The notes: generated by a model not told the origin, from the letters alone. A DNA stretch of 64,000 bases from an uncultured Clostridia bacterium (GCA_944388755.1 CALXJY010000003.1:1012-65011), one strand, 5' to 3'. Counted from the stretch's first letter, positions 44,572-54,515 are shown. A program made the numbers and translations.

Positions 44572-45909
44572 CTAATCTAAATATGCTGAGAATAAGAAAT
44601 TTCCCATATAAACTTGTATACATGGTACTAGTACAACTATTACAAAGAAAATTAATACAACACCTACTATTGTATATACAATTTGTGGTAATGTCTTCAT
44701 TATCTTATCTAGCATATCGTCTATATCTATTTGTAAATATTCATTTAATTTTTCAATCATTTCTGGTAGGTCTGTATCCATACCTATTTTTAACATTTCT
44801 GTAATCATCGGTTTGCATAGTCCTGAACTTTCAAATGGTTCTATCCATGATGAACCTATAAGAATATTATTTATTGAATTTTCAATTATTCCCCTTAAAA
44901 CATAATTTTTAACCACATTTTTACTTACATCAAGTGAGTCTTGAATTCTCATTCCATTTTGTAAATTTAAATGCATTGCTCTCATTAGTCTTGAAAAGTC
45001 TAAGGCAAATATTAATTGTCCAAATACTGGTACTTTATATTTAAAATAGTCAAAATTATATCTTCCTCTTGGTGTTCTAATATACATTATAATACCTACT
45101 ATGACTCCAATGATAAGAATTACAGGTATATACCAATATGCAATTGCTACATTCATTACTTTTTGGAACCATAATGTTACTGGTGGCAAGGTATCTTTTG
45201 TTCCTAATTCTTCATATACACTTTGTATTGCTGGTATTGCAACAAGTGTACCTACAACTAACATTATTATAATTAATATAAATTGTATTATATTTGGAAT
45301 TAAGATATTTCTCAATCTTTTCTTTATTCTATCAGTATCGTCTAAATATTTTACAGCCTGTTCTAACGAATTTGTAAGAGAGCCTGATAATTCTCCTACT
45401 TTTATCATATTTGTATAAATATATGGAAATATATTTGAGTAATATTCCATTGTTGTATACATGTAATCTCCTGCTTCTATACCTGCTAATATATCTTCTA
45501 ATATTTCTTTAAACATTAGATTATCAGTACCATCTATAATTGTTTTTAGTGCATGTATATTATTGAAATTTGCTTTTTTTAATAAATATAGGTCTTGTGT
45601 AAAAACTACTATATCTCTTGATGTTATTTTTTGATTAGTTGTTAAATATTTTTTTACTTTTTCTGAGTTAGACATAACTTTTGATTTGTCTATATTTGTA
45701 GTTGTAAAATTTTTCATATATTCATCAATGGCATTAATGTTTTTCTTTGCTTTTTTACCATTTTTTATAAATATATCTTTTTCTACACTTATTGGGGTCA
45801 TTTCGTTTCTTTTTAATCTCTGTATTAAGCTTTCTTTACTATCTGCTTCTACCTTATTTTTTACAACTACCCCATATTTAGTCATTGCTTTATATACATA
45901 GCTGGGCAT
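44572..45909 (-). CDS. pilC: type IV pilus platform protein PilC (GspF family)
   Basis: 445 aa with two T2SSF-like repeats and three TM segments. Last gene of the pilus operon. Confidence 0.8.
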   Translation of the reverse strand: MPSYVYKAMTKYGVVVKNKVEADSKESLIQRLKRNEMTPISVEKDIFIKNGKKAKKNINAIDEYMKNFTTTNIDKSKVMSNSEKVKKYLTTNQKITSRDIVVFTQDLYLLKKANFNNIHALKTIIDGTDNLMFKEILEDILAGIEAGDYMYTTMEYYSNIFPYIYTNMIKVGELSGSLTNSLEQAVKYLDDTDRIKKRLRNILIPNIIQFILIIIMLVVGTLVAIPAIQSVYEELGTKDTLPPVTLWFQKVMNVAIAYWYIPVILIIGVIVGIIMYIRTPRGRYNFDYFKYKVPVFGQLIFALDFSRLMRAMHLNLQNGMRIQDSLDVSKNVVKNYVLRGIIENSINNILIGSSWIEPFESSGLCKPMITEMLKIGMDTDLPEMIEKLNEYLQIDIDDMLDKIMKTLPQIVYTIVGVVLIFFVIVVLVPCIQVYMGNFLFSAYLD

Positions 45910-45922
45910 TTCTTACCTCCTG

Positions 45923-52098: not shown

Positions 52099-52890
52099 TT
52101 AATTAACTGTATTTTTCATTGATTTTGTTGTATTTGTTGTGTTTGTCGTATTTTTTGTTGTAGTTGTATTTGATGTTACAGTTGTATTTTTTGTTGTGCT
52201 ATTACTTGTATTTTGTGTTGTATCCTTTGTGCTACCTGCAGTGGTACTATCTTCTTCTATTTCATCATTTGATGAATTTGTCATTGCTGTTATTCCTGAT
52301 ATCGCTATATCTTTTGTTACAAATGTTGCTTCTACTTGTGAGCCATTATTTATTGGTGTCATTTTGAAGTCCTCTATTTTAAATCCAAGGTCTGAATTAT
52401 CTTCTAAGTCAGATATATACAAAGAAATTCCTACATAACTTCCTCTTACTGTAAAGTTTATATTGTAGTATTTGTAACTTGATGGTTCTGTTGATGTTAG
52501 AGTTCCATTTGTTAGTTTAAATACTGCAGTTAATCCCTCATCTGTTGCTAATGTTCCAAGTCTTGACCATAATTTGTCTACTGTATATTTTTGTGTTTGT
52601 AATGATGCTGCAACCTCACTATCTGTACTCACAGCTACCATATCTTCATATTTTTGTTTATATTCTTTCATTTTACTTATATCTGTATCTAATTCTGATA
52701 ATTTATTAGGATATTCTGTACTAACAAGTTGTGTTGCTTCAGTTAATTTTTTTTCTAGTGATTGGTCTTCTTCTTGTATTTCTTTAACTCCTAATATATT
52801 AATTCCTCCAATGTGTAATCCTTGAATTACTGTTACAATTGTTAGTGCTAAAACAAGGATTATTACTATACTTAATAATAATTTTTTCAT
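52099..52890 (-). CDS. PilO-like pilus assembly protein
   Basis: N-terminal TM, a coiled coil, a C-terminal beta-rich domain and a T/N-rich tail. ATGA overlap with the upstream pilMN gene. Confidence 0.55.
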   Translation of the reverse strand: MKKLLLSIVIILVLALTIVTVIQGLHIGGINILGVKEIQEEDQSLEKKLTEATQLVSTEYPNKLSELDTDISKMKEYKQKYEDMVAVSTDSEVAASLQTQKYTVDKLWSRLGTLATDEGLTAVFKLTNGTLTSTEPSSYKYYNINFTVRGSYVGISLYISDLEDNSDLGFKIEDFKMTPINNGSQVEATFVTKDIAISGITAMTNSSNDEIEEDSTTAGSTKDTTQNTSNSTTKNTTVTSNTTTTKNTTNTTNTTKSMKNTVN

Positions 52891-54515
52891 GGCAACTCTC
52901 CTTCTATCTCTACAGTTACAACATCACCGTTTTTCTGTCCTGATGTTGATAACACATTATTTAAAATCACATCTGTTTTTATGCTTCCTATCAAAAATGC
53001 AATTTGTTCATATTTTGGTGATTTAACTGTTATTGATACTTTATTTGATTCTGTATTTTCAATAGATGTTATTTGCACATTTGATGGTATAACATTCATT
53101 AATTGATTTAATAATCCTGGTATTGCACCTTTTACCTTATTTTTTTCCTCTAATCTATTATTTAATTCTTCCAAATTTAGTATTCTTGTTTCATAATCAC
53201 TTGTTATTTTTTTTATTGATTGATCATCTTTTTCTGCTGATGCTATTTGAGCTTCTGAGTTACTTATTGAGCTTAGTGTTTCATCTGTTTTTTTCTTGTA
53301 TTCATTTTTTAATAATGCAGAAAATCCACAATATACTATAAGTAGAATTAGTAATCCTATTGCTGTATTTAATAATCCTTTTTCAACTTTATCAAATGGT
53401 TGTTTTAAGTCATTTACAAATAAATTGCTTAAAAATTTGTTTCCTTTTGATTTTCTTCCTCTTTTTGGTTTTCCTATGTCTGTTGTAAGGAAATTTTTCA
53501 TTTTTTCGTTAAATGCTTCTTTTTTGAAATTCATTTGTGAAATTCCTTCTCCTAAGCCCATTAATGCAATTGATATTGCAGAGTTTACTTCTACATAATC
53601 TTTTAAATTTATATTTGGTGTGTTTCCAACAAAGTCAGGCTTTAGTATTTCACATTTTACTCCTTCTAAATATTCTTGAAAATATAAATCAATATTATTT
53701 ATTAATGAAGCTGTTCCTGTAATATAAACTGTTTCTATTTTTTCTACACTTTCATTTATAACTTTTTGTACTTGTCCAACTATTGGATATAAAATTGGCA
53801 TTATATCTTCTAGATATCCTGTTTGTTCACTTGATAATTCTTTTGCTTCTGATGTGTATATTGTTGTATCTTTGCATATATCATAAGCTTTAGAATATGA
53901 ATTTTCCTTTAAACTGATTTTATCCAAGAAATCTGCTGTTCCTTGTTCTAAAACTTTTATGTCATAAATGTTTTTCTTTATAATCGTTGTTATTGTTGTT
54001 TTTTCTTCTAAATTTACTATTAAAGAATTTGATTCTAATACTTTGTTTGTTAAATTAGTTATTGCAATTGGCAATGGATATATTCCTGTTAATCTATAAC
54101 CATCTAATAATTGCATTTCTTTGTCAAGATCCATTTTGTTATTTGTTACATATAGTACTTTTAGTTTATCTTCATCCTCTATATTTTCTACAACTGCATA
54201 TCTTGCTTCAAACACATTAGGGTTATAACCTTTATCATTGCAGTATGACTCAAATTCTGTTTTTAGTGCTTTATCTAAATCATTTTTACTAAGCATTGAA
54301 AACATGTTGAAATACTGGTATGTTTCTTTAGATAAATTTATGCAAACAGGTGTTTTATAACTATATGTTTCTTCTATAACTTGTTTTATTCCATCCTCTA
54401 TTTTGTCATAGAATTTTATTCCAAATGCTTCTATTTTCTTCAAGTTTTTTTCTTTAGAAACTTTAGCATATTTTATTAAATTTTTTTCGATATATAAACC
54501 TAAACAACTTGCCAT
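52887..54515 (-). CDS. pilM: PilM-PilN fusion (actin-like ATPase fold + TM + periplasmic-type domain)
   Basis: About 350-aa PilM/FtsA-like N-domain, then a TM (AIGLLILLIVYCGFSALL), then a coiled coil and a PilN-like C-terminus. First gene of the operon. Confidence 0.65.
   Translation of the reverse strand: MASCLGLYIEKNLIKYAKVSKEKNLKKIEAFGIKFYDKIEDGIKQVIEETYSYKTPVCINLSKETYQYFNMFSMLSKNDLDKALKTEFESYCNDKGYNPNVFEARYAVVENIEDEDKLKVLYVTNNKMDLDKEMQLLDGYRLTGIYPLPIAITNLTNKVLESNSLIVNLEEKTTITTIIKKNIYDIKVLEQGTADFLDKISLKENSYSKAYDICKDTTIYTSEAKELSSEQTGYLEDIMPILYPIVGQVQKVINESVEKIETVYITGTASLINNIDLYFQEYLEGVKCEILKPDFVGNTPNINLKDYVEVNSAISIALMGLGEGISQMNFKKEAFNEKMKNFLTTDIGKPKRGRKSKGNKFLSNLFVNDLKQPFDKVEKGLLNTAIGLLILLIVYCGFSALLKNEYKKKTDETLSSISNSEAQIASAEKDDQSIKKITSDYETRILNLEELNNRLEEKNKVKGAIPGLLNQLMNVIPSNVQITSIENTESNKVSITVKSPKYEQIAFLIGSIKTDVILNNVLSTSGQKNGDVVTVEIEGELP

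Follow-up and report, generated by a model that had tools for sequence, protein, structure and literature searches.

A type IV pilus operon with Ile+1/Ala+5 pilins and an apparently divided PilD in an order of uncultured gut Clostridia

The role of the near-invariant glutamate at position 5 of mature type IV pilins (Glu5) and the reason for pilin N-methylation have been open questions for decades (PMC4471445, PMC10191384). Both are raised by an operon in a stretch of 64,000 nucleotides from an uncultured Clostridia bacterium (GCA_944388755.1 CALXJY010000003.1:1012-65011; this whole stretch is called the window below), in which the major pilins have Ile at +1 and Ala at +5 and the PilD-like protein is without the second catalytic Asp. 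What kind of machine is encoded by this operon, and by which enzymes would its pilins be cleaved and methylated? The operon runs from 54515 to 44572 on the minus strand as 11 tightly packed, co-oriented open reading frames (ORFs); the first-pass annotation, made from the sequence of the window, had described 11 co-oriented pilus genes here, and all of them were found again on that strand with the coordinates given below. The genome studied (G000; 1.52 Mb, 64 contigs, ~26% GC, 97.7% complete) has as its nearest public relatives metagenome-assembled genomes from animal and human gut, labelled as uncultured Clostridia or Clostridium sp., such as Clostridium sp. CAG:343, 28_17 and 27_14. The answer that we favour, and hold to be rather probable, is that the operon would encode a functional clostridial-type type IVa pilus (T4aP) with a derived class III signal, (K/N)G↓ITL(V/I)AL (the arrow marks the predicted cleavage site), and that two paralogs would share the activities of PilD between them. 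The steps of cleavage, methylation and filament formation are all inferred from sequence in this uncultured organism.

Pilin signature, motors and the pilin module

The two major pilin paralogs, A (51074-51502, 142 aa, MKSNNQKG↓ITLVALV) and B (50586-51026, 146 aa, MKNNQKG↓ITLVALV), have the same N-terminus, QKG↓ITLVALVITIIVLLILAG, and the two minor pilins read EKG↓ITIIDIILSV (49150-49593, 147 aa, Asp+5, with a weak ComGF/ComGE-like N-terminus) and EKG↓ITTTSVIIYV (48702-49148, 148 aa, Ser+5), the leader junction common to all four being (Q/E)KG↓IT. The true start of pilin A was placed at 51502, where an ATG is preceded by a GAGGAGG Shine-Dalgarno sequence, rather than at the start of the longer ORF. 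Pilin B was matched by the N_methyl model PF07963 with 21.8 bits, and pilin A reached 20.0 bits, just below the cut-off of 21.2. In a profile search against the PDB, a profile of 38 homologs was aligned in register with MshA (QQG↓FTLIELV) and geopilin (KKG↓FTLIELL). Therefore, the Gly stands at -1, and Phe1 and Glu5 are replaced by Ile and Ala, respectively. The N-terminus has the form of a class III signal, with a short hydrophilic leader (about 6-9 residues in most intact loci) ending in Gly and followed by ~21 hydrophobic residues, but it departs from type IV pilins at two positions, since Ile stands at +1 in place of Phe (or Met/Leu) and an acidic +5 residue is found only in one minor pilin.

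This signature is highly conserved. In the alignment of the 38 homologs, G-1, T2, L3, A5 and residues 6-17 do not vary, and neither does part of the motif LSG(E/D)NGIL after the helix; among the 120 listed of the 6660 homologs of pilin B the N-terminus is near-invariant. Orthologous operons were counted in 79 loci, each from a different species. The major pilins, encoded upstream of the PilD-like gene, have Ile+1 in 105/113 and Ala+5 in 109/113 cases, and the exceptions are mostly false calls on a bitopic protein. In the first downstream minor pilin, residue +1 is mixed and residue +5 is Asp in 73 loci and Glu in 2; in the second, +1 is again mixed and +5 is Ser in 70 and Thr in 7. The (Q/E)KG↓IT leader and the Ile+1/Ala+5 major pilins reported by the first-pass annotation are thus confirmed in the sequence, with Ile+1/Ala+5 conserved over hundreds of species, and its remark that a single minor pilin of the operon keeps an acidic +5 holds for the 75 orthologs with Asp or Glu. 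No characterised homolog with a KG↓IT N-terminus was found in PDB, Pfam, NCBIfam or the open-access literature. In the AF2 model of pilin B (pLDDT 84), helices cover residues 3-32, 37-73 and 87-97 and there are four strands; a ~70-residue N-terminal helix kinked at SGEN is followed by an alpha-beta loop with a short helix, and the predicted order of elements is that of a pilin, lollipop-like.

The motors were compared with models and structures of known systems. PilB (47043-48686, 547 aa, with an MshEN-type N-terminal domain) was matched by T2SSE with an E value of 3.9e-104 and by MshEN; its best NCBIfam model is that of type IV-A PilB (TIGR02538, 435 bits), and against PDB it scored 354 bits with Thermus PilF and ~296-300 bits with Geobacter and Myxococcus PilB, with lower scores for GspE (~272 bits) and BfpD (91 bits). 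PilT (45923-47023, 366 aa) was matched by TIGR01420 with 303.9 bits, slightly below the cut-off of 319, and aligned with PDB PilT over its full length with 212 bits. PilC (44572-45909, 445 aa) was matched by GspF/PilC models, has two T2SSF domains and scored 98 bits with M. xanthus PilC. The ComGA and ComGB models scored far under the PilB and PilC models. The operon is a complete type IV pilus system, as described by the first-pass annotation. Because PilB, PilT and PilC are T4aP-like, the machine is, as judged by its motors, an ordinary clostridial-type T4aP and not a new class. PilC is the sole T2SSF protein of the genome, and only two T2SSE ATPases (PilB and PilT) are found there and in the operon-bearing genomes of its family; with only two T2SSE proteins and one T2SSF protein, the operon is therefore the sole type IV filament machine of this genome. 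The T2SSE/T2SSF search of the genome found no CpaF- or TadB-like gene. A Tad-like system was considered and rejected, as the weak T2SSE match on contig C12 lies outside any Tad-like cluster and there is no second T2SSF protein.

The alignment proteins are less clearly assigned. The first gene of the operon encodes a putative PilM-PilN fusion (52887-54515, 542 aa), in which a Pfam PilN domain was detected in the C-terminal part of 11/12 orthologs (best E 2.4e-7); in the PilM half of the same 12 orthologs Pfam detected no PilM, and one gave an FtsA match. The next gene encodes a bitopic protein with a Thr/Asn-rich tail (52099-52890, 263 aa), which was tentatively assigned as PilO-like: it occupies the position expected for PilO and has no Pfam match, and a profile of 12 orthologs gave a weak match to M. 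xanthus PilO (3jc8, E 0.066, residues 99-206). The third is a conserved bitopic protein of 165 aa (51570-52067), without a match to any family in Pfam or NCBIfam; its ortholog occupies the equivalent place in the related loci that were inspected.

As a separate observation on PilB, the c-di-GMP motif model scored exactly at its cut-off (38 bits) in the MshEN-type N-terminus, where the first Arg of the motif is apparently replaced (QPIG). The genome has a single GGDEF-domain gene (C29:16446-16787).

The pilin N-terminus is not confined to the operon. When a hidden Markov model (HMM) of the first 48 columns of the pilin alignment was searched on the genome, at least 22 loci were found to carry this N-terminal module. 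All complete loci have Ile+1 with Ala, Thr or Ser at +5, an acidic +5 is absent apart from the one minor pilin, and Gly-1 is present in every locus with a readable junction; no canonical Phe1/Glu5 pilin was found in this genome. Most loci encode proteins of 320-680 aa, and the Pfam modules present in module-bearing proteins are BspA-type leucine-rich repeats (LRR), GLUG and DUF6273. Large proteins of this type (~380-700 aa) are encoded at C17:468-1688, C28:19161-20603, C32:16999-18180, C43:557-1816, C45:99-1439, C63:1260-2420, C2:~66950 and C12:17628-18956, and truncated or interrupted copies of the module lie on contigs C8, C23 and C42. Several loci abut contig ends, so that the conserved 5' end seems to be an assembly-breaking repeat. 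Among 399 scored Clostridia genomes, strong module matches were confined to this order, nine genomes outside it giving single weak matches; within the order, the highest number of scored matches per genome was at least 17, and a first look at a relative gave as many as 68 candidates. The same module on at least 22 loci, several of adhesin type, suggests that the pilus is probably a display platform for many modular pilins.

This repertoire also bears on an alternative, namely that the machine is mainly a type II secretion system (T2SS)-like or surface-display device, in which a short Ala+5 pseudopilus exports or presents the large module proteins and no long adhesive or motility pili are formed. 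The number of module loci, the size and adhesin-like domains of most of the proteins and the many candidates in the relative would all fit such a device, as would the operon without pilT in a sister family (f5, see below) and the report that classical subunits without Glu5 fail to homopolymerise (PMC4471445). However, PilT is in the operon in families f1, f3 and f4, two small major-pilin paralogs occupy the classic major-pilin position, and PilB scores higher against T4aP PilB than against GspE. We regard this alternative as unlikely, and it is compatible with a clostridial-type T4aP that displays modular pilins.

The genome also encodes a ComEC DNA-uptake channel, and a small gene of pilin-like type (NNG↓ITLMTL) lies ~7 kb from it (C16:3542-4348 and C16:11709-12245); it is conceivable that the pilus takes part in DNA uptake.

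The operon PilD-like protein and the stand-alone peptidase

The PilD-like protein (49654-50466, 270 aa) combines a Zn-finger methylase domain with a catalytically degenerate A24-like membrane domain. Its N-terminal part was matched by PF06750, the bacterial A24 N-terminal domain, with 112 bits, and none of the 17 family members scanned gave a match to PF01478 (Peptidase_A24) at E<=10, which bears out the divergence of PilD noticed by the first-pass annotation. Among the 79 orthologs, C40, C43, C65 and C68 are kept in all, and the Gly-Lys pair ahead of the third Cys is kept as G63 in 74 and K64 in 75. It has been reported that the Zn-finger/Cys domain is required for methylation and dispensable for cleavage (PMC3584216), and that the two catalytic Asp residues are universally conserved and critical (PMC10191384). 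The first of these, D126 in the context GIDKE, is kept in 78/79 orthologs, and the second in none: position 192, aligned to the Asp of GxGD, is occupied by I, V, L, M, T, N or C and in no ortholog by an acidic residue. A joint alignment with canonical PilDs placed D126 at the first catalytic Asp and TNGIII where GxGD(I/V)K falls.

An exhaustive search yielded 16237 relatives of the protein, and among the best 150 cluster representatives a GDxK motif first appeared no earlier than rank 89; lower-ranked canonical PilDs were aligned to the protein over its full length. Relatives are encoded in 345 stretches of a one-genome-per-species collection. The median dN/dS over 23 independent species pairs was ~0.09 for the N-terminal and ~0.17 for the C-terminal domain; both domains are under purifying selection and not decaying. 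The AF2 model of the protein has a pLDDT of 94. These features point to a putative methylase with a dead peptidase half; no description of a methylase-only PilD, degenerate or truncated, was found in the open-access literature.

A second protein of the A24 family is encoded elsewhere in the genome, between a YqeG-like phosphatase gene and the pepP-efp genes (C6:37320-38069, 250 aa; PF01478 73.8 bits). It keeps both catalytic Asp residues, in the motifs IDYKHQIIPN and GFGDVKL, but Cys pairs are absent; the Zn-finger insert has been lost, and a flanking RPHY remnant is left. Such a stand-alone peptidase is present in 61/61 sampled genomes of the order, and both motifs, DxxxxxIP(N/D) and GFGDVK, are intact in every copy inspected. 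No useful alignment was given by hhalign between the PilD-family profile and the single stand-alone sequence; the homology of the C-terminal domain of the PilD-like protein with the stand-alone peptidase was shown via intermediate sequences in a multiple alignment. The two proteins would fit a pair of subfunctionalised paralogs.

The same 61 genomes, which fall into families f1-f5 with the genome studied in f1, were compared for the state of PilD and of the major pilin. In f5 the operon PilD keeps both Asp motifs (GxGDIKY) and the major pilin reads G↓ISLIAL, with Ala+5; in f1 the second Asp is lost and in f4 both are lost (GIAKE), the major pilins having Ala+5 in each. The peptidase half is gone in f3, where the N-domain runs in frame into a Glu+5 minor pilin (KKG↓VFNIE) and the major pilin has Val+5, and in f2 the N-domain stands alone (131-142 aa) beside a canonical KG↓FTLIEL major pilin. 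The methylase N-domain is kept in 57/61 genomes, and at least four of the five families have, by different routes, either lost or inactivated the peptidase half. A single minor pilin with an acidic +5 persists in f1, f4 and f5; in f3 it takes the form of the fusion. The first-pass annotation had linked the loss of Glu5 to the divergent PilD; that link is not a strict one, because f5 has Ala+5 pilins with an intact-motif PilD and f2 has canonical pilins with an N-domain-only PilD. Loss of Glu5 is older than the decay of PilD and separable from it.

Several side observations were made in the sister families. In the f3 loci L095:9903-10697 and L097:9430-10215, the ORF of the PilD N-domain continues into the Glu+5 minor pilin (KKG↓VFNIEIL and KKG↓VFVLEII, respectively), which would be either a methylase-pilin fusion or two genes without a stop between them. 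In f2 (L093, L094), the canonical KG↓FTLIEL pilins occur in several tandem copies and two separate short A24 peptidase ORFs lie elsewhere. In genus g11 of f5, PilB consists of two adjacent ORFs (~375 aa and 188-198 aa) with the same split point in eight genomes (for example, G040:C3:569964-571095 and G005:C36:102331-103459), and the operon has no pilT, a PilT-like gene being found elsewhere.

The operon PilD-like protein could instead still be the prepilin peptidase, working with D126 and a non-canonical acidic residue such as the near-invariant E128. D126 and its GIDKE context are conserved as described, the C-terminal domain is under purifying selection (omega ~0.17), and the gene lies among the pilin genes, where that of a working PilD would be. 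Nevertheless, the position of the GxGD Asp is never acidic, f4 has lost the first Asp as well, f2 and f3 lack the whole domain and yet keep pilins and machine, both Asp residues are essential in every tested A24/GxGD protease (PMC10191384, PMC3584216), and an intact peptidase is encoded elsewhere in every genome searched. We judge a working operon peptidase to be improbable. As for the idea that the N-terminus is an unprocessed signal-anchor tethering the proteins to the membrane, with the pilus genes a relic or serving DNA uptake only, the operon without an active peptidase, the absence of Glu5, the presence of ComEC and a related locus (L039) that lost most of the operon would agree with it, but it is made very improbable by the Gly-1 that is invariant in the pilin alignment and in the loci of this genome with a readable junction, the conserved short charged leader, the 11 genes intact and syntenic in the related species inspected, and the intact A24 peptidase universal in the order.

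In a T4aP with its PilD activities divided between two paralogs, the prepilins would be inserted in the membrane and then cleaved after the invariant Gly by the stand-alone A24 aspartyl peptidase, and the operon PilD-like protein would act solely as the N-methyltransferase of Ile+1 or as a pilin-binding cofactor. PilB and PilC would polymerise the Ala+5 major pilins into a filament that has no salt bridge between Glu5 and the N-terminus in its hydrophobic core, and the Asp/Glu+5 minor pilin would probably act at priming. PilT would retract the filament, and the modular pilins would be displayed on it.

Several facts weigh against this reading. Efficient methylation and homopolymer assembly depend on Glu5 in P. 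aeruginosa (PMC4471445), and by that precedent an Ala+5 pilin would be neither methylated nor assembled. Foldseek searches against PDB gave no match at E<=0.001 for the AF2 model of the PilD-like protein or for that of pilin B, so that membership at the level of the fold is tentative, and the assignments of PilM and PilO are weak. Another genome of f1 (G001) is without the pilus ATPases and the methylase domain and yet has the peptidase, so the stand-alone peptidase may have another role or substrate. A small Tad-like cluster is present in the sister families f2-f5, and there the stand-alone peptidase could be the TadV of that system.

Extended to the whole gut order, the proposal would be one of retractile T4a pili without the Glu5 salt bridge, a PilD split into methylase-only and peptidase-only proteins, and a pilin signal used as a general display or export tag for dozens of modular adhesins per genome; we put this wider form forward tentatively, as possible rather than probable. 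The lineage is a natural experiment on Glu5, in that its major pilins assemble, if at all, without this residue. It is likewise one on PilD, with parallel reduction to the methylase domain in several families and cleavage apparently handed over, and a methylase under selection after loss of the peptidase would argue for a separate role of methylation. For these bacteria, which are abundant gut commensals and uncultured, the system also appears to be the chief means of surface display, and a repertoire of more than 20 adhesin-like modular proteins in 1.5 Mb would bear on host and glycan binding.

Locus layout and flanking genes

The operon is flanked by rsmB upstream and by a transketolase C-subunit gene downstream. 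rsmB (54696-56205, minus strand) appears as two overlapping ORFs, 55189-56205 and 54696-55232. The gene of the transketolase C-terminal subunit (43531-44448, minus strand) directly follows pilC, with no gene of the N-terminal subunit adjacent; in related loci, pilC and the transketolase C-subunit gene are separated by a gene of a ROK-family kinase. In the related species inspected, every one of the 11 genes is intact and synteny is conserved; on these grounds, and because of the low dN/dS, decay of the operon was ruled out. Loss of the operon was observed elsewhere in the lineage: locus L039 keeps one pilin gene and the PilD-like gene, directly followed by the ROK kinase gene, and G001 has no PilB, PilT or PF06750 match and keeps its stand-alone A24 peptidase.

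A hairpin with a perfect 11-bp stem (50540-50564, no strand assigned) lies between the genes of pilin B and the PilD-like protein. Because it is followed on the coding strand by an A-run and not a U-run, it is not a classical terminator; it may mark the transcript end or act as a stabiliser. Rfam gave no match to a riboswitch or any other RNA family within or upstream of the operon. The promoter and terminator scan was uninformative at 26% GC, with 77 promoter-like sites against 90 expected.

Relation to known systems

The Tad-like pilus cluster of TANB77 was likewise described in uncultured gut Clostridia with small genomes of low GC, and includes unannotated pilin-like proteins (Kim et al. 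2024, PMC11680825). It differs from the operon by its CpaB, TadZ, CpaE, CpaF-like ATPase of 640 aa and TadBC fusion (PMC11680825). No such cluster was found in the genome studied here.

In archaea, class III signals are also carried by many surface proteins that are not part of a pilus. The pilins of the operon resemble archaeal pilins and archaellins in that the Gly at -1 has a charged residue before it (-2) and a small hydrophobic one after it (+1), and in the archaeal proteins Glu5 is often absent (PMC4471445). In contrast to archaea, the methylase domain here is the bacterial PF06750, archaeal peptidases carrying a different domain (PMC4471445), and the motors are of the bacterial T4aP type and include PilT.

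The PilD-like protein shares with P. aeruginosa PilD the CxxC..CxxC Zn finger and the Gly-Lys pair before the third Cys, both of which are implicated in methylation (PMC3584216), and the stand-alone peptidase is like TadV/CpaA in having two Asp motifs without a methylase domain (PMC10191384). In PilD and TadV systems, one protein does both reactions or methylation is absent, whereas in the lineage studied here each half seems to have a paralog of its own.

The pilA1 cluster of C. difficile has a PilM-PilN fusion and a monoderm T4aP gene set of the same kind. With the clostridial and streptococcal T4aP of C. perfringens and the S. sanguinis pil locus, the operon shares PilB, PilT, PilC, a PilD encoded in the locus and, as tentatively assigned, the PilM-PilN fusion and a PilO-like protein; the two similar major pilins recall PilE1/E2 of S. 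sanguinis, and minor and modular pilins with grafted adhesive domains are likewise known from monoderm T4aP (PMC6916266, PMC8179133, PMC10191384). It differs from them in the pilin signal, since the class III signals of characterised monoderm pilins are canonical and include Glu5 (PMC6916266) and Ile+1 and Ala+5 are found here, in an operon PilD without the second catalytic Asp, and in the more than 20 pilin-like loci of a 1.5-Mb genome. The first-pass annotation had proposed a distinct subclass of Gram-positive type IV filament; the distinctness is upheld by the conserved signature and the aberrant PilD, but the motors are ordinary for a clostridial-type T4aP. What is new here is a PilD that has lost the second Asp and is under selection, a stand-alone peptidase throughout the order, and at least 22 loci with the same N-terminus; neither the stand-alone peptidase nor the further loci had been seen by the first-pass annotation. 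On these grounds, the system is a monoderm T4aP of a distinct and conserved kind, in which the pilin signal is non-canonical, the two PilD paralogs are apparently subfunctionalised and the set of modular pilins is greatly expanded.

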